The position numbers and the translations under genes are program-made. The notes below the pieces were generated by a model. The model ran no database searches, was not told the origin of the DNA, and was given only the letters and a program-made list of their open reading frames with translations. From contig NZ_CP146064.1 of the NCBI RefSeq assembly GCF_037013405.1, positions 270,001 to 302,000 on the forward strand: a stretch of DNA of 32,000 nucleotides, given 5' to 3'. This document shows, one piece after another, positions 5,632-27,847 of the stretch (its first letter is position 1; each line of letters starts with the position of its first letter). The DNA comes from Candidatus Nanosynbacter sp. BB002. GTDB taxonomy: Bacteria; Patescibacteriota; Saccharimonadia; Saccharimonadales; Saccharimonadaceae.

Positions 5632-7952
5632 TGAACGGTTACTGGGAAATTATTCGTCGCAATTTGTTTTCGCCGATTGTTATCGCAATTTTTCTGCTGG
5701 CGGGCGCGTTGATTTATGCTCGGGAGTACCGCGATGCGTGGTTTATCTCAGTGGTGATTGTCGTGAACTCGTTGATTGGTATTGTTCAGGAAATTCGTGC
5801 CAAACGAGCGCTCAAGAAGCTGGAGTTGATGAGTCAGCCACGAGCGCGGTTGTTGTCGGCTGATGGTTCCGTGACGGAAGTGGCGTATGATGCGTTGCGC
5901 GTTGGCGACAAGATTCAGCTGATTGCTGGTGATGAAGTGCCAGCAGATGTAGAGGTACTTGAGGTTAAAGGTCTGGAGTTAAACGAAAGTATGTTGACTG
6001 GCGAATCGGCGGCGGTAGAAAAAAGCGTTGGTGATACAGCTTGGGCGGCGACCACTGTGTTGGCTGGCTCTGGCGAGGCTCGCGTCACAGCGGTTGGTGC
6101 GGATACAAAAGCCGGTGCCATCAGTCAAGTGTTGAAACAGTACAAGCCAGAGCTGACCCCTTTGCAACGAGCAATTCAACGAGCCATTAGCTTTTTGACG
6201 TTTGGTGCGTTTGGGCTGGCAGCGTTGATTTTCATCGCTTACATGACATCTGGTCAGGACTCGGTGCAGATATTGAAAACCATCACTTCGGCGGCCGTGA
6301 CGGTTGTGCCAGAGGGGCTGCTGCTAGCAAGTTCACTGCTCTTGGCATTTGGTTCGATCAAATTAGCGCAAGCCAGAGTCTTACCGCAGAAACTGTCAGC
6401 CATTGAAGCCATGGCGCTACTCAACTTGTTGTGTGTCGACAAAACTGGCACGCTTACCAGCGACGAAGTGACGTTGGAAAAAATCGTTGCTTTGGGTAGT
6501 GGCGATCAATCAGACGAAACGCTTTCGAAAATTGTCGCCTTGATCGCGGAGCAAACCAGTGGTGGCAATATCACTGGTCAAGCTATCTTGGAAGCAGCCA
6601 CGCCGCTCAAGGACGCCAAAATCATTGACGTTATGGCGTTCTCGTCTGCGCGTAAAATGGCGGGTCTGCGGTTTGAGTCTGAGGGCAAAATCCACACAGT
6701 CGTCATGGGCGCACCAGAGTTTGTTACAGAGTTGGCGCCAGTTGATGCAATGGGTCAGCGTCAAATTAACGAATGGGCTGACGCGGGTCTGCGTGTGCTG
6801 CTGTTGGCTGAGTTTGATGATTCTCGGAGCGCTCTGAAGGATTTGCCTGTTGGGTCTGGCCGTGCCATCGGTGCGGTGATTTTGCGCAATGCGCTGCGCG
6901 ATGGTGTTCAGAAAACTGTTCAATTTTTGCAAGACCAAGGCGTCAGTATCCGGGTGATATCTGGCGACAACCCGCGGACGGTGCAGTTCATCGCTTCGGC
7001 GGCTGGCATTAATAATTCTGACAAAGCCATCACTGGTGCGGCGCTGGCTGCATTGAGTGACAAAGATTTTGTCAAGGCGGCTGACGAACACGTTATATTT
7101 GCTCGGGTACATCCAGAGCAGAAAGAGCGGCTGATTGCGCATTATAAAGATCAGGCCCTGTTCACCGGCATGGTTGGTGACGGCGTCAATGACGCGCTGG
7201 CGCTCAAAAAGGCTGATCTTGGCGTGGCTATGCACGCGGGCGCACCAGCGTCGCGTCGCGTCTCAGATATTATCCTGTTGAATAACTCATTCACCTCTTT
7301 GCCACTTGGTATGCGGCTAGGTAACCGAATTATGCAAGCGATTGAAGTGATCGCTACCCTGTTCTTCCACAAAATTATCTATGGCGTGGTTCTGTTAATG
7401 TGTACGCTGTCGTTGGGCATGCTTTATCCATATCAGCCGCGTCACATCACCTTTATGAATATTTTCCTGGTGACACTGCCGACTTTGATGTGGACACTTT
7501 TTCCGCCTGTGCCAAACCATCGCATCAATCCTCGTCTGTTTTGGCGTCATACGCTGATGAACGTGATGCCCATCGCGCTGATCACGGGTCTGACAGTGGC
7601 GTTCACCTATTGGATCGGCTCTGCCATCTTCCCTGATCGTCCGGAGGAAGTTGCCACCATGACGGTACTGACGGCGACATTCTATGGCGTCTATCTGGTA
7701 TTTTTGGTCGGACCAATGCTGGGCGTCACCTTAACGCGCAACGCCAGAAAAGCGCGCCTGTTGTATATGCTGGCGGTGAGTATTGTAGCAGCTGGTAGCT
7801 TTGGTATCGGTCCACTCCGCCGATTCTTTGACTTTACCAAGCCAGACATCATCGTCCTATTGCCAGCGCTCGGTGTCATCGTCCTGGCAGCAATATTACA
7901 GTGGTGGCTCGCACTGCGCGCTGGTGTGAAGGTCAGATCTTCGCAGTCTTAA
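5631..7952 (+). CDS. P-type cation-transporting ATPase (E1-E2 type)
   Basis: Motifs seen are TGES (MLTGESAAVEK), the phosphorylation site CVDKTGTLT, the hinge GDGVNDALALKKADLGVAM, and multiple hydrophobic segments. I chose the start MNGYWEII because it overlaps the upstream stop codon. Confidence 0.9.
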   Translation: MNGYWEIIRRNLFSPIVIAIFLLAGALIYAREYRDAWFISVVIVVNSLIGIVQEIRAKRALKKLELMSQPRARLLSADGSVTEVAYDALRVGDKIQLIAGDEVPADVEVLEVKGLELNESMLTGESAAVEKSVGDTAWAATTVLAGSGEARVTAVGADTKAGAISQVLKQYKPELTPLQRAIQRAISFLTFGAFGLAALIFIAYMTSGQDSVQILKTITSAAVTVVPEGLLLASSLLLAFGSIKLAQARVLPQKLSAIEAMALLNLLCVDKTGTLTSDEVTLEKIVALGSGDQSDETLSKIVALIAEQTSGGNITGQAILEAATPLKDAKIIDVMAFSSARKMAGLRFESEGKIHTVVMGAPEFVTELAPVDAMGQRQINEWADAGLRVLLLAEFDDSRSALKDLPVGSGRAIGAVILRNALRDGVQKTVQFLQDQGVSIRVISGDNPRTVQFIASAAGINNSDKAITGAALAALSDKDFVKAADEHVIFARVHPEQKERLIAHYKDQALFTGMVGDGVNDALALKKADLGVAMHAGAPASRRVSDIILLNNSFTSLPLGMRLGNRIMQAIEVIATLFFHKIIYGVVLLMCTLSLGMLYPYQPRHITFMNIFLVTLPTLMWTLFPPVPNHRINPRLFWRHTLMNVMPIALITGLTVAFTYWIGSAIFPDRPEEVATMTVLTATFYGVYLVFLVGPMLGVTLTRNARKARLLYMLAVSIVAAGSFGIGPLRRFFDFTKPDIIVLLPALGVIVLAAILQWWLALRAGVKVRSSQS

Positions 7953-9283
7953 TGCGGCATTTTATCCAAAACCACCAGATTCTCAATGTGTGGCGTGCGC
8001 GGGAAGAGATTGTAGCCCTGATGATGTACGATGTGATATTTCTCACTGAGCAAAGCAACATCCCGAGCTTGAGTGACAGGGTTGCAGCTCAGATAGACAA
8101 TGCGTGGTGGCAATTGTTCTAACAAGCGGTCGACGACGTCCGCATGCAAGCCAGCTCGTGGCGGATCGACGATGATGAGATTGTTGGGGTGGATGTAATC
8201 AAGGGCTTGTTCACTGGCTGCCAAGATGGCTTTGGCATTGTGTTCACGTCCCAAAGCGTGAATATTGCGCTGCATTTCCTGGACAGCATGTTCGTTAATT
8301 TCTACCAAAGTGACATGTTCTCTGCCGATAGTGAGGCCGATAGTACCAACACCCGAATACATATCAACAGTTGATAGAGCGTTATTTGACTCTACTGACG
8401 CGGTACGAATCCACGCTGCCATGTCGGTGAGTGCCTGCTCATACACCGGCAAATTGACCTGAAAAAATCCTTCAGCGACATAGCGAAACGGAACGCCTAG
8501 TATCTCGTCAGTGAGAACGGTGTCACCAAACGCCGCTAGCCGTTCGGTGATGACACTGGCAGGACTTTTGGGGTTGGAATAGATGATTTCTCCACCTTGG
8601 GCTGACAGGTTGGCTGCTTCCTCCGCGGTGATGACATCTTCCAGGTGGTCTTTGAGGTATAATTGCCAGATACACTTGCCTGACCGGCTACATCTGATGA
8701 GTAGTGTTTTCAGATTGCGTGCGGTGACTGGCTTGGTGCGCAGCAAGTCGCGAATTTCTAAGGCTAGCGTGTTGATCTCGGGACGAGCAAGCGAGGTGCC
8801 GTCGACGGTGATTTTACCCTTTGAGCCACGTCGGAAAAATGCCAAATCAAGCGTATCAGTTTCTGAGTCCGGGTCTGTGTCGCTGTACCAGCTGTATTCA
8901 ACTTTATTACGATACGCCAGTTGCTGCTCGTCTGTATAGACTGTCGGTGTAGTCGGCAAGGTAACGTGATGTAGTTCAAACGCTTCGGCGATCAACTGGG
9001 CTTTGTACTGCTGCTCTGCTGAAAAGTTCATGATTTGCCAGGGGCTGGTGCTGAGGTAACTGTCTGGATCGACCGGAGTGATGCGCTCAGAACTGGCGTG
9101 ATGAACCTCAGTTATAACGCCTTCGACGAACTTTGATTTTTTCTTGGTCACCCTGATAGTCACTTGTTCGCCTGGCAATCCACCCCATACAAATGCTTTA
9201 CGGCCATCTGTCAGCGTGCCGATGGTCTGCCCACCGCCCACGATGTTTTCCAGGGTTAGGGTTGCAGTCTGCGCTTTCTTCAT
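7949..9283 (-). CDS. SAM-dependent RNA (uracil-5)-methyltransferase, TrmA/RlmD (RumA) family
   Basis: The N-terminus is TRAM-like (GGGQTIGTL...GEQVTIRVTKKK). SAM motif I is VDMYSGVGTIG, motif IV is DPPRAGL, and the catalytic Cys is in YLSCNP. I chose the ATG at 9283, which is preceded by TACAAT plus 6 nt. The ORF-track start at 9301 is a TTG. Confidence 0.85.
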   Translation of the reverse strand: MKKAQTATLTLENIVGGGQTIGTLTDGRKAFVWGGLPGEQVTIRVTKKKSKFVEGVITEVHHASSERITPVDPDSYLSTSPWQIMNFSAEQQYKAQLIAEAFELHHVTLPTTPTVYTDEQQLAYRNKVEYSWYSDTDPDSETDTLDLAFFRRGSKGKITVDGTSLARPEINTLALEIRDLLRTKPVTARNLKTLLIRCSRSGKCIWQLYLKDHLEDVITAEEAANLSAQGGEIIYSNPKSPASVITERLAAFGDTVLTDEILGVPFRYVAEGFFQVNLPVYEQALTDMAAWIRTASVESNNALSTVDMYSGVGTIGLTIGREHVTLVEINEHAVQEMQRNIHALGREHNAKAILAASEQALDYIHPNNLIIVDPPRAGLHADVVDRLLEQLPPRIVYLSCNPVTQARDVALLSEKYHIVHHQGYNLFPRTPHIENLVVLDKMPH

Positions 9284-9335: not shown

Positions 9336-9797
9336 TTAGAAGTCGCAATTTTCAGCCGCTGGTGCTGGTGTGTTCCACCACATCGCCAGGATGCCTTTTC
9401 CGACGCGACATTTGGTGCCGTTAGCTCGGTACATCAGCAGCCCGTAGCGATTGTCGGGGCTTTTATTGACGGTGTATTCGTAGTGTTTGCCACGCCAGTC
9501 TGTCGGTAATTCTTTGAGATATTTTGGCACCAGTAATGGGTTGAGCTCGCCAGCGTCGCACGTCCGGTTGGTCGCCGAGCTGTATTTACTGCAGGACGCA
9601 GGCCACGGATATTCTCCATTTTGGCTGTAATATTCTTCGACGGCGTTTTGGATGGTTAATAATTCAGTCTTGCTTTCGTTATTGATGGCGTCTTCGCGGG
9701 CAGCGCGCCACGCTAGGCCACCGAGGGTCATCAAGATGCCGAGGACTAAGACGACTACCAATACTTCGACGATTGTAAAACCATAGTGCTTATGCAT
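9336..9797 (-). CDS. Type IV pilin / pseudopilin-like protein
   Basis: The sequence MHKHYG|FTIVEVLVVVLVLGILMTLG is a prepilin-type N-terminal cleavage/methylation motif followed by a hydrophobic helix. Four Cys residues lie in the C-terminal globular part. The promoter is TTGCCA-17-TATAAT, 6 nt upstream of the ATG. Confidence 0.8.
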   Translation of the reverse strand: MHKHYGFTIVEVLVVVLVLGILMTLGGLAWRAAREDAINNESKTELLTIQNAVEEYYSQNGEYPWPASCSKYSSATNRTCDAGELNPLLVPKYLKELPTDWRGKHYEYTVNKSPDNRYGLLMYRANGTKCRVGKGILAMWWNTPAPAAENCDF

Positions 9798-9899
9798 AGT
9801 TTGATTATACGGCGGCGTTGGCGGATTGGCAAGCTTGGTATCTCTGCCCTGATGTGGTACAATGTTACACGTAGCTGCGCTCACACGCGTTGCTCGTAT

Positions 9900-9974
9900 T
9901 GGGCCGTCGCCAAGTGGTAAGGCACCAGGTTTTGGTCCTGGCATTCGGGGGTTCGAATCCCTCCGGCCCAGCCA
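9900..9974 (+). tRNA. tRNA-Gln (anticodon UUG)
   Basis: The cloverleaf reads TGGGCCG TC GCCAAGTGGTAAGGC A CCAGG TTTTGGT CCTGG CATTC GGGGG TTCGAAT CCCTC CGGCCCA G CCA. It has the U1-A72 pair and the D-arm GCCAAG-GGTAAGGC typical of bacterial tRNA-Gln. CCA is encoded. Confidence 0.95.
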
Positions 9975-10112
9975 CATTGTATATCAACCGTCTAGCCAGA
10001 AGTGGTTGGGCGGTTTGTTTGTATGATTTGGTCTATTGTATAGATACCCCCTATCTTTGTGCCTATATCTTGCGTAGGTCTAGCGCCAAATGTATTGAGT
10101 GTGAGGAATATA

Positions 10113-13100
10113 TTAATCTCTAAACCGCTCTTGCTTAATTATGCGGTTTCTTTCTCTCTCATAAGTCTCTGCAAGCTCACGTAGTGATGTTGCAAGATTT
10201 ATAAAACCCAAAGACTCAATCTCATTTGCACGATTCCGCCATTTATCTCTCAAGGAGGCCTCAGCCTCGCCCGTTTCGTCTACTACGTGCATACCACGTG
10301 CATTATGAATACCCATGTTGTACCCAGATCTCATAGATACTGAATCATTTCGGTCTAAAATTCTTGCTACCGTTTTGTTGATCCATAAGCCGCTTTTATC
10401 TTCAGGAGAGTTTATTAGGTATCCACCTATAACAGATTGGGCGATACCCAAGTGCCCACTCATCTTACATATCTCTTCGACCTTGTATATCCAGGTAATA
10501 AAATCATCTTCTCGGAATGTGCCATATTGGTCTATGCCTGGCATAACCATAAAGTCATTAAACGATAATATTTTTAATAATCTGTATTGGATAGCATCGT
10601 CAATCTCTTGCTGCTTGACATCGGGAAGTTCTGATTTGTAGGCAGTCTTAATTAGATCGCAGAAAAAATCTGCATCATTTGCAATTCGATATATTAATGC
10701 TCGTGGTTGTCCTATGCCATGTTTTCCAAAAAGACTAATACAGCCCCACTCCGCCTCCCATAGGTTCGTTCTTGTATAGTCAATGTTGTCGTATAAATAC
10801 TTGAATACTCGACCTATTTCGTACTGTAAGTTATTTGTGCCTGAAATGTTTTCAGTGGTATTTAATGATGCCATTAGTGCTTTTAGACATAGTTCTGGAT
10901 CAATTTGCTGTTTGATGGAGCTATCACCCATAATGATCACTGAGGCAATATATTCAATTGCGGCCAGAGGGCGCTTGGCCTTCAGAAGGTTTCTAACTGC
11001 AGCTTCGGAATATTTATCATCAATCGTATGTCTAAAATTATCGACCCTATCCCAATATCCTTTAGTAAGGTCTTTATTTTGTTGTGCGTCCAATAGGTCC
11101 CAGGTGCTTTGGCTAAATGGCAAAGCTAGAAGAAGTAGAATCTTCTGTTCGTTATTCCAGCTGGCAAAATCTAACTTATTAACCCAGTTGATATCACCTT
11201 TATAATAGAAATATCTCGTATAAATGAAGTTACTAATAAATTCTTTTTCAGCTTTATTCTCGTTGAGGAATTTAGGTAATAGCATGTTTTCGATGGATGG
11301 ATAATTTATAGAGCCCAGGCTAGATCCTATGGTGTACGGCATCTTGGCTTGGTTAATAAGCTCATTCAGCTGGCGAATGGCATTATCTGAGTTTAAAATC
11401 TTGAGAAGTGATTCTCGCTGTTTCTCTTCCAGTTCTTTCTTGCCTTTTTCCCAGTCGTTATAGCCTATAAGATCATGGTCATAATTACTAAATAGATATA
11501 TAGACTTACACAAATCATCTTCAGGCTCTATATCACTGGCAATTTTTTTGAGTATCTTTACCCTTTCGTCTTCATCTTTACTGCGCCGATCTAGATTATT
11601 TATTTTTTTAAGTAATACCTCCCATACTACTTGCCTATCTTTATCAGTCATGTTTTGCAGGCGCTTATTTAGTTGGTTGGTAAAACTCGGCAAAGTATCA
11701 TCGGTAAGATGGTTAACGCTATTGATTGCATCAACGATTTCTTGAAGAGACTCGGTTGTATCTATGTAGAGATTTGAGTAGTATGAACTCTCCTTCCATA
11801 GCTCTTGTTGCGTAACAGGCTGAAGAGTATTGGTAATATCTAGCCATTCTGGAAGTTTCCTCTCCATGGTTGTTTGAGTCATATTCGGCAGTAAACCCTT
11901 GAGTAGCTCTCGCCCGACAGCTTTATGCTCATTGACTATTTTTTCGACCACACCGTGTTGAACCTCTAAGGGGGCAAGCGTTTTCGGCTGCCACGGCAGG
12001 ATCGTATGTAGGATGGTATCTAGGGAACGCTTTTTATTCTCTGTCTGATCAATTTCGAGGGTTGCAATCTTAGCTAACACTAGACTAGCTCGTGAAAAAT
12101 ATTTTTTATCCCAAGATAAATCAGCCAGCGCCCAGTATAAACCAGTCATGTAATCTGGCTGAAAGAATGAGTCACCTGAACTTTCCTTTATACCTGTCGC
12201 AATTGGATTATCATTTTTTATTTTAAGGGTGCTCTCTAGTCTTGACAAAAACTGAACTGGAGATGCTTGAGCGATTAAAGAGGCGTTGTCTGTGATGCTC
12301 ATCCATAGTTTTGGATTTTGACTATCAGAAAGTAGCCCGGACACTATATTATTTGCCGTATTGGCTATTTTGTTGGCAGAGCACTTGCTAAACATACCTT
12401 GATTATTCGCAAGCATGGCCATACCATTTGCTACGCCAGTCCTAATTGTCGCTGAGTATGCTCGGCTCTTTTTGTAAATATTAGCCATATATCTTTCGTC
12501 TATTGGCAAATCTAGCGCTGGATTAATTTCACTCAGGATCCTTAAGTAAATATCCGCAAAAACATCAATATGGTTGTCATAAATGCATTTACTTAGCTGC
12601 TCAACCGTAGATTTAATGTCAAGAACCTTCCACGTAGTATCTCTTAGTTCTAGTACTTGATCATCGGTAGAATTTATTTCTTGGACTACGTCCAACAAGG
12701 AGTCTTCATCACATCTTAGCAATTCAGACACTATTTTTTTATCATTTGAATTTGCAGAGTCAAATTCACCAATTAAACATAGTAATGCTAGCTCTTTTTT
12801 GTGTGCTGTTTTAATTGTGATCTTGTTTTTTGACGGTTCTGCTTTTTTGACTAATTGATTTTCATCCTGTAAGCTCACTACATCATCTTGTCGGATTACT
12901 TTCTCTTCTTTGAATATCTCCAGTAGTTTTTTAGGCAGATCATCTTTTAATAGCTCTATCTGGTCTTTATTACGAGTAGCTACATAATGACAGAGCCGTT
13001 CCCATACAACTTTAGGGCTTACGTTATCTTTCCATTTTTTCTGTGCCAAGATGCTATGAATCAAGGCGACATTAATATCACCGTCTTCAAACAGATTCTC

Positions 13101-13724
13101 ATGCATGTCAGATTTTATTATGAAGAAAGATTTCAAGAACTCAAATTCCACTTCTCTATCTAAGGCAATGTTATTGTTTGCTAGTGTTAGTTTTTCGCGC
13201 AGATACCTAAGACCATTAAGCTCATCTTTATTTCTGCCTAAAACATTATTATCGTAGTTTTCCCAGAACTGATCAGCCGACTGATAAGAGCTTTGAATAT
13301 GAGTCAGTATATTCTTCAGCCCAATTCCACTCTTCTCAAGCTCGCCAGTGACGAGCATTATTCTATCAGAGTTCCTATTAAAGCTCTGGCTGTTAAAATC
13401 GTTCCAAGCATCTTTTATGGTTTTTGTAAATTCACCGTTTGAAAGACGAACTTTTCGCTTTACCTGAACCAGTAGCGTCTTTTCTCTTCTCGGGTTGTTC
13501 AGGTCTTTAAGGGTTACTTCGCAATCATCAGTCTTCCTTCCATATCGCTCTGCCTGGAATACTATCCTCGTTACTTCGCAGTTGTCCATCCTAGGCACTA
13601 GTCCACCTGTGATCATTTGGATCACAAAAAATGCCTGCACGGAATGCTCAAAAACATACCCATCGCCAGATGCGGATATGGGGTTTGTGCATCCCTTGGG
13701 TATTGCCGAGTCGCCACTGCTCAT
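10113..13724 (-). CDS. Giant orphan protein (1203 aa) with a PD-(D/E)xK-like nuclease head and about 1100 aa of uncharacterised, probably helical, sequence
   Basis: This is an uninterrupted 3.6-kb ORF in visibly AT-rich DNA. The N-terminus carries ordered motifs GYVFEHSVQAFFV (Glu helix), KTDDCEVTL (Asp strand) and LLVQVKRK (QxK). I found no GxxxxGK[ST] Walker A anywhere. A TATAAT box lies 8 nt upstream of the ATG. Confidence 0.8.
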   Translation of the reverse strand: MSSGDSAIPKGCTNPISASGDGYVFEHSVQAFFVIQMITGGLVPRMDNCEVTRIVFQAERYGRKTDDCEVTLKDLNNPRREKTLLVQVKRKVRLSNGEFTKTIKDAWNDFNSQSFNRNSDRIMLVTGELEKSGIGLKNILTHIQSSYQSADQFWENYDNNVLGRNKDELNGLRYLREKLTLANNNIALDREVEFEFLKSFFIIKSDMHENLFEDGDINVALIHSILAQKKWKDNVSPKVVWERLCHYVATRNKDQIELLKDDLPKKLLEIFKEEKVIRQDDVVSLQDENQLVKKAEPSKNKITIKTAHKKELALLCLIGEFDSANSNDKKIVSELLRCDEDSLLDVVQEINSTDDQVLELRDTTWKVLDIKSTVEQLSKCIYDNHIDVFADIYLRILSEINPALDLPIDERYMANIYKKSRAYSATIRTGVANGMAMLANNQGMFSKCSANKIANTANNIVSGLLSDSQNPKLWMSITDNASLIAQASPVQFLSRLESTLKIKNDNPIATGIKESSGDSFFQPDYMTGLYWALADLSWDKKYFSRASLVLAKIATLEIDQTENKKRSLDTILHTILPWQPKTLAPLEVQHGVVEKIVNEHKAVGRELLKGLLPNMTQTTMERKLPEWLDITNTLQPVTQQELWKESSYYSNLYIDTTESLQEIVDAINSVNHLTDDTLPSFTNQLNKRLQNMTDKDRQVVWEVLLKKINNLDRRSKDEDERVKILKKIASDIEPEDDLCKSIYLFSNYDHDLIGYNDWEKGKKELEEKQRESLLKILNSDNAIRQLNELINQAKMPYTIGSSLGSINYPSIENMLLPKFLNENKAEKEFISNFIYTRYFYYKGDINWVNKLDFASWNNEQKILLLLALPFSQSTWDLLDAQQNKDLTKGYWDRVDNFRHTIDDKYSEAAVRNLLKAKRPLAAIEYIASVIIMGDSSIKQQIDPELCLKALMASLNTTENISGTNNLQYEIGRVFKYLYDNIDYTRTNLWEAEWGCISLFGKHGIGQPRALIYRIANDADFFCDLIKTAYKSELPDVKQQEIDDAIQYRLLKILSFNDFMVMPGIDQYGTFREDDFITWIYKVEEICKMSGHLGIAQSVIGGYLINSPEDKSGLWINKTVARILDRNDSVSMRSGYNMGIHNARGMHVVDETGEAEASLRDKWRNRANEIESLGFINLATSLRELAETYERERNRIIKQERFRD

Positions 13725-14004
13725 AATATAGAATTATAGCACTTATATTAATACATAGCTTGATAGCTCGCCGACGGTTACACGCCTTACAGCGGTCTAT
13801 ATTTATCACGTTCGTCTGATGTGCTAGGTTTATGTGTGTATAGCTAATATATCAGCGCGGTTATTTTCATTCATGACAACGCACCGACTAATATCTTTTG
13901 AAAGGTCCAGAGAATAACGATCAAAATAACCATTTAATGATATGATTACAGGGTCTATAATAAAGTCATTGTATGTCTTGAAGTTATTAACAGAAAGGAA
14001 AAAG

Positions 14005-14652
14005 ATGGAAATCAACAAAGTCGCGCTAAAAGCATTTTATGATCTTCATAAAGAGGACTATTTTCGGCGACGGTATTCTGGCGATGCTAAGCTGTGGGAT
14101 GAATTATATAAATGGGATATTCTGCCTCGCCTCAACAAGGAGTTGGCGCAGTACCAATCAGTTACTAAAGAGTCAGTTGCAGAGGTTGCGCGCATCCTGA
14201 CACACCACACAAGTACTAGTAATTTTGCTAATTGGCGGGACATTGATGATTTGAAAGATTTTTTGCAGCGCCCGAATGCTCACGCTGTCATTAATGAGCT
14301 ATGGCGTGCAACGCCTGAGTCTGTCGATCAGAATATTGATAGCGCTGGGGCGATGACACAATTCTTGATGTCAGACAAAAAATTTGCTCCATCCACTTGG
14401 GCTTACCTGCTCGCAGCGCGTGACTGTCATTCATTTGCGCTCTACCGTGATGTAGTCATGAAACAGGTCGCCGAAATATGTGGTATAGATAAGCCCGCTG
14501 CCGTATCTCAGGGTAAAAAATATGCCCTAGTGAATGATGCAGCACTATATTTAGGTGAGCTGATGCGACGCGATATCACTGAAGCGCCGTATATGCAGGC
14601 GCTGGATGGTCAGGATTTCTTGTGGGTTGTGCTGATGTATAGCGAAGACTAG
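14005..14652 (+). CDS. Hypothetical protein (215 aa), divergent partner of the giant ORF
   Basis: I chose the start MEINKVAL because it is preceded by GAAAGGAAAAAG (SD-like). The ORF-track start at 13942 lies in AT-rich promoter DNA. I recognise no catalytic motif. Confidence 0.65.
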   Translation: MEINKVALKAFYDLHKEDYFRRRYSGDAKLWDELYKWDILPRLNKELAQYQSVTKESVAEVARILTHHTSTSNFANWRDIDDLKDFLQRPNAHAVINELWRATPESVDQNIDSAGAMTQFLMSDKKFAPSTWAYLLAARDCHSFALYRDVVMKQVAEICGIDKPAAVSQGKKYALVNDAALYLGELMRRDITEAPYMQALDGQDFLWVVLMYSED

Positions 14653-14663
14653 ATGATATTATC

Positions 14664-17215: not shown

Positions 17216-18259
17216 CTACTGCACGTATTTTTTGGCGCGAGCTTTGTCGACTTGGACTGTTTCAAAGACGGTTTTGGCCATTTGGTCAAAGGCATTCTTG
17301 CCTTCAGCGTTGTAGCGGCCAGTCCCTTGTAGTATCACGCCGTCCTTTTCAAAATAGTAAAAGAAGGTGACGTAGCTTGTCGGGTCACTTTGTGGCGCTG
17401 TGTGTTGTACTTCTTTGGAATTATACTTGGTAATTTGGTCGTATTTGTGGGTGCCAGCCTTTACATAATAATCATCTGCAGTCGCCTGCTCTAGTGTTTT
17501 AGAGGTGGAAACAGGACGAACTGTGAGGCTGATTTGGACATTATTTCTGGTGCCAACAAAAGTGATTTTGTCATCAGCACTGGACCGTTGCGTGATGCTA
17601 AAGCCGTCGATTTCATTAGCGAACTTGTTTACCTTCACGATTTCTCGGTCATCTGAAGTGTATTCTTGGTCGGGCGCTTGGTAATTACTGTCGTACCTGA
17701 CAGACTTGACCAATGACTGGATACTGGATGACTCGAACAAGGTTTTACTGCCTGAAGCATTGCTGATATTTTCAATGTCTAGGTGGAGTTCGTACCATTC
17801 TTGGTCACGCTGAACCAGTGGTATTTTGACGATGTAGTGATATGAATTGTCATCATAGGCATAGCCTCCCAGTGCGCCAGTGGCTTTGTCAGCTTTGAGC
17901 TCGGTGAAGTTGCCTCGTTTTTTGGCAGCCTCGAGGTCGTTGGCACGGCTGGCTTTCCCGACCTGCGCGATTTTGGCGGTGATGGTGTATGTTTCGCCCT
18001 TGTCTTTGATGGTCATGGTTGGAAAGCGCGGACGCTCTTCGCTTTTGATCTCGTACGAATACTGGTCTTTCGGCAGCAACATAGTAGCAGCGATATTGTA
18101 GCCATCAGAGGCGAAATGAACTGTGTTGGCAGCCAGACGCTGATTGATCTGCTCTTTTTGATGGTGATTATAAAATATGATCCCTAGGATACTGACTGCA
18201 ATGACAAATAAGCCAATGAAAACGCCAATAAAGATCTGTTGTTTTTGTCTTCTACGCAT
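17216..18259 (-). CDS. N-terminally membrane-anchored hypothetical protein (347 aa)
   Basis: The N-terminus MRRRQKQQIFIGVFIGLFVIAVSILGIIFY is a signal-anchor. The remainder is hydrophilic with no motif I recognise. Confidence 0.7.
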   Translation of the reverse strand: MRRRQKQQIFIGVFIGLFVIAVSILGIIFYNHHQKEQINQRLAANTVHFASDGYNIAATMLLPKDQYSYEIKSEERPRFPTMTIKDKGETYTITAKIAQVGKASRANDLEAAKKRGNFTELKADKATGALGGYAYDDNSYHYIVKIPLVQRDQEWYELHLDIENISNASGSKTLFESSSIQSLVKSVRYDSNYQAPDQEYTSDDREIVKVNKFANEIDGFSITQRSSADDKITFVGTRNNVQISLTVRPVSTSKTLEQATADDYYVKAGTHKYDQITKYNSKEVQHTAPQSDPTSYVTFFYYFEKDGVILQGTGRYNAEGKNAFDQMAKTVFETVQVDKARAKKYVQ

Positions 18260-26017: not shown

Positions 26018-26046
26018 TTGACAGTATTAACAATATAGTGTATAAT
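26018..26046 (+). promoter_or_regulatory. Perfect consensus sigma70 promoter of HExxH paralog 1
   Basis: TTGACA (26018-26023), a 17-nt spacer, then TATAAT (26041-26046). Confidence 0.7.
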
Positions 26047-26055
26047 TTGATGACT

Positions 26056-26940
26056 ATGAGTGAGCGACGTCCTGGCAGCACATCACCCACGCGGCAGAGG
26101 TGGCACCCGATTAACAACCCGGCGGAGCTTGGGCGCATTCAGGACCAGTTGGTAGAAACGCTGGATCGTCCTGAAATCACTGACAAACTGGGAGGTTTGG
26201 CGCTGGAACTTGCCGAGGTTGCTCAGCAGCTACATCCTGTTACGTACAATAGGGATGGTATTGTCAGAGCGGATGAGTTGCTGGCGTCTGACCCGAACAG
26301 TATCCCGCTAGTTGGAAATACAAAATTCACCTCGCATTTTAAGCTTGCGCCAACGCCTATGCAACTTGAAGCCATCAACAAAAAGCTAACCAGCGATGAA
26401 TGTGGTCAAATATTAATTCCTCAGCTAGAGAGAGTGTTAGGTAGTAAATATAATAGCGAGATGATGAAGGTTGATCGTCCGAGTCTAGCTACATGTTGCG
26501 CAGTGACAAAATATTTTAATCTTACTAAAGACGATATTTCTCATGTTGCAGGTCGGCCTTTTATAGGCATGAACTCTACTGACATTGAACCAATCGACAT
26601 TGCGGTTATGGTCCATGAAGCGACGCACGCGTTGGATCATGTGAATACTCCATTCCTCTATGTTTGTGACAAAAAAGATCTATCAGCCGCCATGTTAACA
26701 GGTTTCAAATCTCGTCTTAAACTTGCTCGTGAGTTAAAGGCGTACGCGGTTGGCGACTGTGTCGAGCGGTATCTTGCCGAGACTCACGGGTTAATGGAGC
26801 GCGCTGCGTTAGCATCTCGCAGAGTTGAAGCTATCCGTCAGGAGGTCAATGGTCCCGTGACTGCAAAAGATGCCTTTGCGGTACATGATGATTTGGTGAA
26901 ACGTTTGATTGCAGCAGGCTTGGGTCATATTTATCAGTAG
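26056..26940 (+). CDS. HExxH (zincin-like) protein, paralog 1
   Basis: The motif VHEATHALDH is followed by a downstream Glu in RELKAYAVG. I saw no signal peptide. The start is ambiguous between the ATGs at 26050 and 26056. The ORF-track GTG at 26038 overlaps the -10 box. Confidence 0.75.
   Translation: MSERRPGSTSPTRQRWHPINNPAELGRIQDQLVETLDRPEITDKLGGLALELAEVAQQLHPVTYNRDGIVRADELLASDPNSIPLVGNTKFTSHFKLAPTPMQLEAINKKLTSDECGQILIPQLERVLGSKYNSEMMKVDRPSLATCCAVTKYFNLTKDDISHVAGRPFIGMNSTDIEPIDIAVMVHEATHALDHVNTPFLYVCDKKDLSAAMLTGFKSRLKLARELKAYAVGDCVERYLAETHGLMERAALASRRVEAIRQEVNGPVTAKDAFAVHDDLVKRLIAAGLGHIYQ
26842..26888 (+). repeat. Copy 1 of a 47-nt block (41 nt identical, 1 mismatch, then 5 identical) shared by the two HExxH genes
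   Basis: The sequence is GAGGTCAATGGTCCCGTGACTGCAAAAGATGCCTTTGCGGT-A-CATGA. It encodes EVNGPVTAKDAFAVH. Confidence 0.9.
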
Positions 26941-26963
26941 AGCTTATGTCTTGAGCCTTACAA

Positions 26964-26992
26964 TTGACAAAATACTAATTATAATGTATAAT
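26964..26992 (+). promoter_or_regulatory. Perfect consensus sigma70 promoter of HExxH paralog 2
   Basis: TTGACA (26964-26969), a 17-nt spacer, then TATAAT (26987-26992). The ATG lies 12 nt downstream. Confidence 0.7.
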
Positions 26993-27004
26993 AAAAAGAT
27001 AGTT

Positions 27005-27847
27005 ATGAGAGACGAACTGTACATCATTAACCCGTCAACCCCTAGCTATGATAACCCTATCCCGCTAGATTCTTTAAAGTACATGAAAGATAAACTATTA
27101 GGTGCTTTAGAGAATCCTGAGATACTTGATAAGCTGGGAGCGGTAGCCCTAGGGTTATATGACACGGCTCAAATGCTGGAGCCTATGGAATGGGTTGAGG
27201 GTGAAGAACTAGGAGATAGTCATCCTGACTCTGATTGGACGGATAAAAATATTATACCGCTTATTGGTTGTGATAAGTTTGTTATCTCTGGAAAACAGAT
27301 GTCTCATATGCCAGTCCAAAAAGCTAAAATAGACGAGGCTCTCGCCAGCGACAAGTATGCCGGAGTGTATGGCGATGAAATATATGATCAGATAAAGGCC
27401 TCGCCTGTTATGACAAAAGAGACAGGAAAGCTCACCGGATCTTGTCATACCAGTTTCTCCATGGTAACTGACATGGACCTTTATATATATTCTCGTCCTG
27501 TTGTCAGCGTAGCTAATAGTGGACTTATGGCTATCAATGTCGCCACTTTGTCTCACGAGACAGATCATGCGCGTGATTATGTTATGGACCCAGTTGTGGA
27601 GATATATCCCAAAGATGACCGAGCAAGACTCTGCTCTGAGCTGCGAGCCTATGCCGTAGGTAAGGTGTTTCAGGATCATCTAATGTACGAGGATAGAATG
27701 ATGTTGAGATACCCTAGTTTGTCCGATCGAGTAGAAAAGGTACGAAGAGAGGTCAATGGTCCCGTGACTGCAAAAGATGCCTTTGCGGTGCATGAGGGCA
27801 TAATTCAGCGCTTGGAGCAAGCGGGCCTGAGTTATATTTACAAATAG
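27005..27847 (+). CDS. HExxH (zincin-like) protein, paralog 2
   Basis: The motif SHETDHARDY is followed by SELRAYAVG. It shares PEI(T/L)DKLG, IPL(V/I)G and REVNGPVTAKDAFAVH with paralog 1. I chose the start MRDELY, which is downstream of the promoter. Confidence 0.75.
   Translation: MRDELYIINPSTPSYDNPIPLDSLKYMKDKLLGALENPEILDKLGAVALGLYDTAQMLEPMEWVEGEELGDSHPDSDWTDKNIIPLIGCDKFVISGKQMSHMPVQKAKIDEALASDKYAGVYGDEIYDQIKASPVMTKETGKLTGSCHTSFSMVTDMDLYIYSRPVVSVANSGLMAINVATLSHETDHARDYVMDPVVEIYPKDDRARLCSELRAYAVGKVFQDHLMYEDRMMLRYPSLSDRVEKVRREVNGPVTAKDAFAVHEGIIQRLEQAGLSYIYK
27749..27795 (+). repeat. Copy 2 of the 47-nt shared block
   Basis: The sequence is GAGGTCAATGGTCCCGTGACTGCAAAAGATGCCTTTGCGGT-G-CATGA. 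Confidence 0.9.

Follow-up and report, generated by a model that had tools for sequence, protein, structure and literature searches.

A Candidatus Nanosynbacter protein with a predicted Cap4-type nuclease head on a conserved alpha-solenoid is a likely immune sensor-effector of a previously unrecognised family

The subject of this study is a gene in a 32,000-nucleotide (nt) stretch of contig NZ_CP146064.1 of Candidatus Nanosynbacter sp. BB002 (Saccharibacteria/TM7), hereafter called the window. The gene encodes a protein of 1203 amino acids (aa), which is likely a stand-alone immune sensor-effector of the abortive-infection type, directed against phages or other mobile elements. It is most likely a single-chain effector-plus-solenoid sensor from a hitherto unrecognised protein family. 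Its N-terminal head has the predicted fold of Cap4-type nucleases and keeps their active-site residues, and its body is an alpha-solenoid that is joined to many other heads elsewhere in the family. A defence activity is what we infer for the protein. Three rival explanations, namely that the protein guards restriction-modification (R-M) or BREX systems, that it is a direct restriction-like nuclease or that its role lies outside defence, are each less likely and are weighed below with the evidence that bears on them.

The 1203-aa protein has a 100% match in Candidatus Nanosynbacter sp. BB002, where it is annotated as hypothetical protein V4210_01455, and 128 close relatives. More than 100 sequence variants of it were found in oral Saccharibacteria. 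Full-length homologs range from 99% down to ~28% identity.

The N-terminal head is predicted to have a Cap4-type nuclease fold

An earlier reading of the letters alone (the sequence-only reading) had proposed that the N-terminus carries, in the right order, the elements of a restriction-endonuclease-like fold. The three motifs that it quoted were found at residues 20-37 (GDGYVFEHSVQAFFVIQM), 63-72 (RKTDDCEVTL) and 84-91 (LLVQVKRK). An AlphaFold model of residues 1-285, computed with 13 homologs as input, was confident (predicted local distance difference test, pLDDT, 81.8; predicted template-modelling score, pTM, 0.81). Its topology, H25-39/E49-56/E68-74/E81-92/H97-110/E121-129, follows the alpha-beta-beta-beta-alpha-beta order of restriction endonucleases. 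When the model was compared with PDB by Foldseek, ranks 1-22 were all LmuA, Cap4 or Avs3, with a probability of ~1.00. The best matches were LmuA 9hr5 (E 2.5e-5), Cap4 6wan, 6wam and 6vm6, and Avs3 8dgc_B (E 5e-4), the E-values ranging from 2.5e-5 to 6e-4. TMq to the Cap4-type folds was 0.44-0.46 across ~250-260 aligned columns. Weaker fold matches included the repair nucleases EndoMS/NucS. These findings support the PD-(D/E)xK fold first suggested for the N-terminus, and on this model "Cap4/LmuA/Avs3-type nuclease fold" is a more exact description of the head than "PD-(D/E)xK-like".

In the model, E26 lies within helix 1, D66/D67 stand right ahead of strand 2 and Q87-x-K89 is inside strand 3. 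Across 17 full-length homologs, with identities as low as 29%, E26, D66/D67, Q87 and K89 showed no variation. In a set of 62 genomic homologs that covers many phyla, Q87 was at least 90% conserved, and E26, D66, D67 and K89 were again invariant; QxK was present in 108 of 118 nuclease-headed representatives and ExK in 3. Conservation of the D/QxK residues among homologs had been named beforehand as a point on which the nuclease assignment would stand or fall, and the residues are evidently kept. The Q in place of E is no defect, because D...QxK is the published active site of Cap4-type nucleases (D45/Q58/K60 in the HamA-Cap4 and CBASS Cap4 enzymes; PMC11914072). The conserved D...QxK of the head is predicted to be a metal-dependent DNA-cleavage site.

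The body is modelled as a conserved alpha-solenoid without an NTPase

The body was modelled by AlphaFold on a 60-sequence alignment (pLDDT 90.8, pTM 0.74; helix 64%, strand 1.4%). The modelled body opens with a short alpha/beta element and then runs on as an unbroken alpha-solenoid. By DSSP, the element consists of helices and a beta-hairpin (H24-33, E35-37, H41-51, H55-68, E73-76 and E79-82 in body numbering) and is possibly winged-helix-like. Neither a strict nor a loose pattern detected a Walker A motif in the 1203-aa protein. An alpha/beta P-loop NTPase domain was absent from the confident body model, and no P-loop family in Pfam or NCBIfam was matched. The whole protein gave no significant match in Pfam, NCBIfam, PADLOC or PDB sequences, and the full family profile matched zero chains in PDB. 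Leu, Lys, Asn, Asp and Glu together make up 42% of residues 151-1203. The sequence-only reading was accurate on all these points: it had described a long helical scaffold rich in these five residues, with neither a Walker A motif nor a recognisable catalytic motif in the remaining ~1100 residues, and a protein of no named family.

Foldseek matched the body to generic solenoids only (SF3B1, FANCI, CAND1 and karyopherins; TM 0.2-0.3), and DSR2 and Avs chains were absent from its 50 best fold matches. We presume that the body is the sensor and assembly module. It is collinear throughout the family, with column occupancy near 1.0 in the 60-sequence alignment. Two patches stand out in conservation, an internal one at residues 466-585 and a C-terminal one at residues 1096-1155. 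In the latter, G1100, D1109, G1112-L-W1114-I, R1132, N1141, R1143-G1144, D1149 and E1155 are invariant or near-invariant, and this patch may serve to bind a ligand or in oligomerisation. Since the body is unusually conserved, its ligand may be conserved too, or the signal may come from the host, as opposed to one that co-evolves rapidly.

The same body is joined to exchanged heads across Bacteria and Archaea

With the trimmed alignment as query, 1.84 billion cluster representatives (50%-identity clusters) were searched by profile; 8,208 proteins matched at E <= 1e-3, of which 3,959 were at E <= 1e-30. The family spans Bacteria and Archaea. The protein had been called an orphan at first sight; with 8,208 representative clusters related to it, that description fails.

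Many family members align only from profile position ~250-290 on, and their N-termini vary in length. Alternative heads on the same body were identified by Pfam and PADLOC. They include a SIR2 head of the short-pAgo type (PADLOC E 1e-102), a PNP_UDP_1 head, which is the CBASS 'PN-superfamily' effector, and a calcineurin-like metallophosphatase head, which matches the PADLOC CBASS 'Effector' (described as an endonuclease) and PDC-S60. Further heads were TIR_2, bSEFIR, Schlafen/AlbA_2, FRG, Abi_C, a GT4-conflict glycosyltransferase and DUF4062; several others gave no identification in Pfam or PADLOC. Prokaryotic immune receptors such as Avs, Lamassu LmuA, CBASS effectors and the partners of short pAgo have just this architectural signature, a constant sensor-like module with rotating toxic enzymatic heads.

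Some plasmid copies carry helix-turn-helix (HTH) heads and are named by PGAP, on the strength of the HTH alone, 'helix-turn-helix transcriptional regulator' or 'HigA family antitoxin' ('HigA family addiction module antitoxin'). The HTH heads suggest that in some members of the family the output is transcriptional and not toxic. Such proteins of ~1350 aa, with an N-terminal HTH head on the same body, were seen on a Rhizobium gallicum plasmid (L087:4690-8754) and in plasmid hits H17-H24. Members lacking a head were also observed. On Buttiauxella plasmid pBTX_57 (L096:8564-11658), a body-only protein of 922 aa is preceded by a 106-aa open reading frame (ORF) 5 nt ahead of it, and the profile search contained body-only representatives of ~860 aa (P0201, P0220, P0224, P0231 and others). 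In headless members, an effector may be supplied in trans.

The exchange of heads bears on the possibility that the protein is a direct restriction-like nuclease, in which the solenoid and the alpha/beta element bind foreign or abnormal DNA (ends, modified bases or replication intermediates), the head cuts it specifically and the cell survives. The restriction-endonuclease fold of the head would suit such an activity, as would the presence of the DNA-binding solenoid FANCI among the top fold matches of the body and of EndoMS/NucS among the weaker matches of the head; the HTH-headed relatives likewise suggest an association of the family with DNA. However, the same body also bears SIR2, TIR, PNP, metallophosphatase and Schlafen heads, the targets of which are NAD+, nucleotides and RNA. 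We therefore argue that the body is a generic trigger sensor rather than a DNA-targeting module. The fold matches of the solenoid, moreover, are generic and low in TM. We regard a direct nuclease as unlikely.

Phage-encoded homologs or decoys were sought by tblastn against phages and none was found; a BFVD fold search yielded no viral counterpart of the body.

Homologs are scattered and recur beside defence genes and in mobile DNA

With scan patterns derived from the nuclease head, 185,579 species representatives yielded 172 relatives. These are spread patchily over Enterobacterales, Aeromonas, Paenibacillus, Chlorobium, Desulfovibrio, cyanobacteria, Chloroflexota, Planctomycetota, Methanosarcinaceae, Methanocalculus and others, and in most hosts the guanine-plus-cytosine (GC) content of the homolog is below that of its flanks.

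In E. coli, a full-length copy was present in 7 of 5,426 complete genomes and was always annotated 'hypothetical protein'. In two E. coli strains with differing upstream flanks, the gene lies at the tail-fibre end of a lambdoid prophage, and in one of these it stands beside IS1 and a P4-like satellite that carries DRT3. A conjugative Shewanella plasmid has an Abi family protein and superinfection exclusion protein B as neighbours of the homolog, and on a Rhizobium plasmid an HTH-headed member lies beside AbiEi/AbiEii. In three related contigs from one metagenome, the homolog is located in a Type I R-M operon, where it immediately follows hsdS, or hsdS and a DUF4917 gene, with a Schlafen-like gene, hsdR and a YgjP-like gene downstream; the variable cargo of these contigs is a CBASS Cap15/CD-NTase pair in one and a HAD gene, with or without DUF3800, in the others.

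We surveyed 108 nearest-neighbour ORFs at 61 loci. HsdS was the commonest (6-7 ORFs), followed by Eco57I/MmeI-type (BREX PglX-like) methylases (3); HsdR, BrxL, RhuM and PIN proteins were among the others. No conserved partner gene was found among these ORFs. The family is thus patchy in distribution and recurs beside defence genes and mobile elements, in agreement with the operational definition of a defence-island gene. The sequence-only reading had asked whether homologs would turn out to be core genes in fixed synteny; they are patchy and lie in islands or mobile DNA.

At three loci (L050:6463-15881, L070:6555-15907 and L074:6543-15904), an upstream ORF of 1145-1177 aa overlaps the homolog by 4-14 nt, and an ORF of 777-782 aa begins 28-33 nt past it. 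The upstream ORFs of ~1150 aa are probably the three Eco57I/N6_Mtase/MmeI-type (PglX-like) methylases, and the arrangement looks like an insertion within a BREX-like operon. A distant homolog, P0120 (L098:4802-8374), is next to a gene for a dynamin-like GTPase of 1190 aa (Dynamin_N), and a flavin reductase gene separates the two. The same pairing was seen in two independent metagenomes (L098 and L099).

The R-M and BREX neighbours raise the possibility that the protein guards or backs up restriction, the body monitoring a Type I R-M or BREX complex or anti-restriction proteins and the nuclease firing upon inhibition. Such guard logic has precedents in PrrC with EcoprrI and in PARIS with Ocr. 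HsdS is the commonest single neighbour family, and translational coupling with an upstream gene is seen for several homologs. The homolog starts 2 nt after hsdS at L001 and L004, overlaps an upstream same-strand ORF by 4 nt at L024, L027, L057 and L065, and at L050, L070 and L074 overlaps the ~1150-aa ORF that is probably a PglX-like methylase. The site between hsdS and hsdR is also that of prrC. However, R-M or BREX genes are nearest neighbours at just ~10-12 of ~60 loci, and most copies are solitary, including the E. coli prophage copies and the copy in the window, where no R-M gene was found in 32 kb. R-M operons are landing pads for unrelated defence genes, and linkage to them need not be functional. 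A guard function is in our view quite improbable.

In Saccharibacteria the gene occupies a variable slot beside tRNA-Gln

The GC content of the 1203-aa gene is 0.389, against 0.503 for the remainder of the window; along the window, GC dips to 0.37-0.40 between positions 10 and 14 kb, with flanks of ~0.50-0.52. A tRNA-Gln(ttg) gene, convergent with the 1203-aa gene, lies 138 base pairs (bp) from its stop codon. The foreign-looking AT-rich DNA and the adjoining tRNA gene reported by the sequence-only reading are therefore both real. Twelve full-length Saccharibacteria loci (51-91% identical) were scanned for tRNAs. In 11 of them tRNA-Gln was found ~90-230 bp past the 3' end of the gene, the exception being L008. 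Its anticodon is ttg or ctg by lineage, and the linkage holds even where every other flanking gene differs.

The same slot was located in relatives by anchoring on the flanking P-type ATPase. In Ca. Nanosynbacter lyticus CP124549 (L092:11756-15315), it holds a KAP-family NTPase gene (746 aa) and a 430-aa ORF, with a GC content of 0.40 against 0.50. In another relative (L093:8910-9920), it holds a Mac-1-like (IdeS-like) gene. In both, tRNA-Gln(ttg), the pilin gene and trmA are kept on the far side of the slot. Because different cargo occupies the same slot in relatives, the slot is a variable cargo hotspot, and fixed core synteny is refuted. It has the features of a tRNA-linked island, namely a border at the tRNA 3' end, deviant GC and changing cargo, and looks like a cargo or defence hotspot of Saccharibacteria that does without an integrase. 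An integrase-type island with att repeats was considered and is not supported: no second copy of the tRNA 3' end (<=3 mismatches), no flanking direct repeat and no integrase were found in the window.

Identity of the gene was compared with that of its flanks in Saccharibacteria. The values were 90% for the gene against 95-100% for the flanks in one comparison, 91% against 40-76% in another, and 66% against 60-69% in a third. Read from these sequence comparisons, the gene/flank divergence suggests that vertical retention has been mixed with allelic exchange.

Stable retention at one locus in several Nanosynbacter species would suit a role outside defence, either as a scaffold, housekeeping or specific to the lineage, that carries a repair nuclease or as a selfish addiction-type toxin on mobile elements. 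The large number of variants in oral Saccharibacteria and the lack of a neighbouring defence gene in the window point the same way. However, the distribution is patchy and the gene rare, as in E. coli and the scattered taxa listed above; GC is below that of the flanks in most hosts; and relatives carry alternative cargo in the slot. In addition, the heads come from the immune-effector repertoire, and no antitoxin-like partner is conserved next to the gene. A non-defence role is very unlikely on this evidence.

In the 51%-identity Saccharibacteria clade, of which L005 is the sole locus with gene calls, a gene for a 551-aa protein with no Pfam match (6327-7982) lies 19 nt ahead of the homolog. 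It is itself preceded by a gene for an Mbeg1-like protein (L005:5119-6267). The 551-aa protein may be a partner confined to this lineage, or just further cargo of the island.

Points that weigh against an immune sensor-effector

Several observations weigh against the immune sensor-effector that we prefer. The similarity of the head to Cap4-type nucleases is at the level of the fold only, the TM-scores being moderate. Pfam Cap4/DUF4297 was silent on the 1203-aa protein and on 13 head sequences at E up to 10. Head profiles built from 13 and from 62 sequences matched no nuclease in PDB, the hits being spurious tropomyosin and RipA coiled coils at E > 0.2. The body alignment shows no hypervariable region, such as a direct sensor of fast-evolving phage proteins might have. 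A fused toxin cannot explain every member of the family, since HTH-headed and headless members exist.

The genomic evidence has similar limits. The survey of defence context covers nearest neighbours only, and the fully annotated Type I R-M cases are three in number and come from a single metagenome. Other defence genes, an integrase and an att repeat are all absent from the 32-kb window. One Nanosynbacter lineage keeps the gene at its locus with an identity close to that of the flanks (the third comparison above), so that stable inheritance is possible. Finally, no report of nuclease activity, toxicity or phage protection was found for any family member.

Proposed mechanism

The mechanism that we propose for the immune sensor-effector has four steps. 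At rest, the protein would be inactive, the ~900-residue solenoid holding the N-terminal nuclease apart from partner heads. Upon infection, the body would bind a cue, the likeliest being a conserved protein of phages or mobile elements or a nucleic-acid structure; the cue is most likely conserved because the body is strongly conserved and collinear. Binding would then drive or rearrange an oligomer in which the heads are brought together. The assembled heads may degrade DNA non-specifically through E26, D66/D67 and Q87-x-K89, the conserved residues of the modelled fold. As an outcome, phage replication would be halted and the cell sacrificed. The gene would act alone, with no conserved partner, and spread horizontally; here it occupies the variable cargo slot beside tRNA-Gln.

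The assembly step is modelled on LmuA, Cap4, Avs3 and DSR2, and we consider this analogy a strong one. LmuA passes from an inactive monomer to an active tetramer, and Cap4 nuclease domains dimerise for activity (10.1101/2025.06.23.660979). DSR2 is a tetramer with a SIR2 head, a middle domain and an alpha-solenoid, and its NADase is switched on by the phage's tail tube protein (PMC11850899). The structure of Avs3 has been solved with a bound phage terminase (8dgc).

Comparison with named systems

DSR2 is the nearest known system in design, and the resemblance is one of layout only. Like the 1203-aa protein, DSR2 is a single NTPase-free chain of ~1000-1200 aa with an N-terminal toxic head and a large C-terminal alpha-solenoid, which in DSR2 senses a phage protein (the tail tube protein; PMC11850899). 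Some members of the present family also have a SIR2 head on the same body. However, the PADLOC DSR models matched neither the 1203-aa protein nor its SIR2-headed relative P0210, the family profile matched no PDB chain, and DSR2 was outside the top 50 folds of the body. The head here is a predicted Cap4-type nuclease, and the SIR2 heads of the family are of the short-pAgo type.

Avs3 (AVAST) likewise combines an N-terminal Cap4-like nuclease effector with a long C-terminal helical sensor, and its heads are interchangeable. In contrast to Avs, the 1203-aa protein is without a central STAND NTPase (NOD) module, having no Walker A motif and no P-loop domain, and no PADLOC Avs model matched it. The DSR2-like layout, distinct from that of STAND/Avs, was recognised correctly by the sequence-only reading: a toxic-type head stands on an NTPase-free solenoid and a P-loop domain is absent.

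PADLOC model PD-Lambda-4_A was weakly matched by 3 of 39 relatives (best E 1.7e-5). For P0228, the one relative for which positions are known, residues 544-658 align collinearly with model positions 557-661, and by offset arithmetic this match falls on body patch 466-585. PD-Lambda-4 now goes by the name Avs8 and is a STAND protein that senses the major capsid protein (10.64898/2026.01.04.697583). As judged from sequence, the body and some Avs sensors may share a helical module, or the similarity may be repeat-like.

LmuA and Cap4 are the best fold matches of the head, share its D...QxK signature and are nucleases that stay inactive until assembly. Unlike the 1203-aa protein, LmuA has a short C-terminal domain and needs the SMC-like LmuB (and LmuC); an LmuB-like gene was found neither in the window nor among the commonest neighbour families of homologs. 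CBASS Cap4 differs in having a SAVED domain and needing a CD-NTase signal, whereas the 1203-aa protein has no SAVED domain, its C-terminal part being a 900-residue solenoid, and the window contains no CD-NTase. Furthermore, the Pfam Cap4 nuclease model gave no match to the 1203-aa protein. Several homologs share with PrrC a place inside Type I R-M operons. However, PrrC has no sequence or domain relation to the family, and most family members, including this one, are unlinked to R-M genes.

Novelty and significance

Pfam (2025), NCBIfam (June 2026) and PADLOC-DB (2023) contain no model of the body, and PGAP still calls the E. coli copies hypothetical. In the full-text literature no named system with this architecture was found, although a description outside these resources is possible. 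More tentatively, and with slightly less than even confidence, we propose that the solenoid defines a large unnamed class of NTPase-free intracellular immune receptors. This class would comprise at least 8,000 50%-identity clusters with a dozen or more interchangeable heads, would be unrelated to DSR2 or STAND/Avs, and would read a conserved cue via patches 466-585 and 1096-1155.

If this proposal is true, the family would be a major new one in prokaryotic innate immunity, with a receptor that consists of a single chain, has a conserved solenoid as its scaffold and does without a STAND NTPase. The effectors wired to it would be nuclease, SIR2, TIR, SEFIR, PNP, Schlafen and glycosyltransferase, most of which also occur in eukaryotic immunity. 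The collinear, conserved body suggests a new conserved infection signal, of value both for mechanism and for tools. Even episymbiotic Saccharibacteria, with genomes of ~0.8 Mb, retain the family, and the gene offers a rare view of immunity in this candidate phyla radiation (CPR) lineage. The gene takes up 3,612 bp of the 804-kb contig (~0.45% of the genome), which would imply strong phage pressure on episymbionts. The tRNA-Gln slot is a defined hotspot that can be mined for more TM7 defence genes, and the native E. coli homologs, WP_052944858.1 among them, make the hypothesis directly testable. Family size, breadth of effectors, presence in ultra-reduced CPR genomes and E. coli homologs are thus the reasons for interest.

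Features of the window

The coordinates of the gene, its parts and its immediate surroundings are collected in Table 1.

Table 1. Positions of the 1203-aa gene, its predicted domains and adjoining features in the window
Feature	Position	Strand	Source or basis
1203-aa gene, ATG start, with stop codon	10113..13724	-	ORF listing
Head, residues 1-275, predicted Cap4-type PD-(D/E)xK endonuclease domain	12900..13724	-	AlphaFold and Foldseek
Predicted catalytic span: E26 (13647-13649), D66/D67 (13524-13529), Q87 (13464-13466), K89 (13458-13460)	13458..13649	-	
Body, residues 286-1203, modelled NTPase-free alpha-solenoid (HEAT/ARM-like)	10116..12869	-	AlphaFold model
Small alpha/beta element at body start, residues ~309-367	12624..12800	-	DSSP of body model
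Most conserved internal body patch, residues 466-585	11970..12329	-	Lowest column entropy, 60-sequence alignment
Conserved C-terminal patch, residues 1096-1155	10260..10439	-	Entropy minimum and invariant columns
TATAAT hexamer, exactly 8 nt upstream of ATG	13733..13738	-	Sequence read
tRNA-Gln(ttg), its 3' end being one insert border	9900..9974	+	ARAGORN
Low-GC cargo slot from tRNA-Gln to P-type ATPase gene, containing the 1203-aa gene and the 236-aa ORF	9975..14663	.	GC profile
236-aa ORF, divergent from the 1203-aa gene, same insert	13942..14652	+	GC 0.44

The sequence-only reading had given the 1203-aa gene a promoter of its own. The TATAAT hexamer is indeed present ahead of the ATG; however, 13 promoter-like sites were counted in the region against 12.4 +/- 3.0 in shuffles, which is the level of chance, and a dedicated promoter is not supported. 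If the hexamer were functional, its position would imply a leaderless or near-leaderless mRNA.

The 236-aa ORF of the same insert had no match in Pfam, NCBIfam or PADLOC. It was found again at L015 (96% identity, beside the gene) and L007 (68%, 1.7 kb off), and was not detected in the remaining Saccharibacteria loci searched (L005-L021 and L060). As a partner in the system it was rejected, having no co-occurrence with the 1203-aa gene elsewhere.

The neighbours of the insert in the window are ordinary housekeeping genes: an AddA-like helicase-nuclease, two P-type ATPases, a TrmA-like methyltransferase, a pilin, GreA, a two-component system, ABC transporters, CysRS and a topoisomerase. Three ORFs of 300-347 aa without a Pfam family (17216-18259 on the minus strand; 26038-26940 and 26909-27847 on the plus strand) lie in housekeeping surroundings of normal GC. 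The pilin ORF as called (213 aa, 9336-9977, minus strand) crosses tRNA-Gln on the opposite strand, and its true start is most likely the Met at 9800, which gives a protein of 154 aa with the N_methyl motif at residues 2-26. This pilin is 100% identical in L015 and just 40% identical in L006, indicating that it is fast-evolving.

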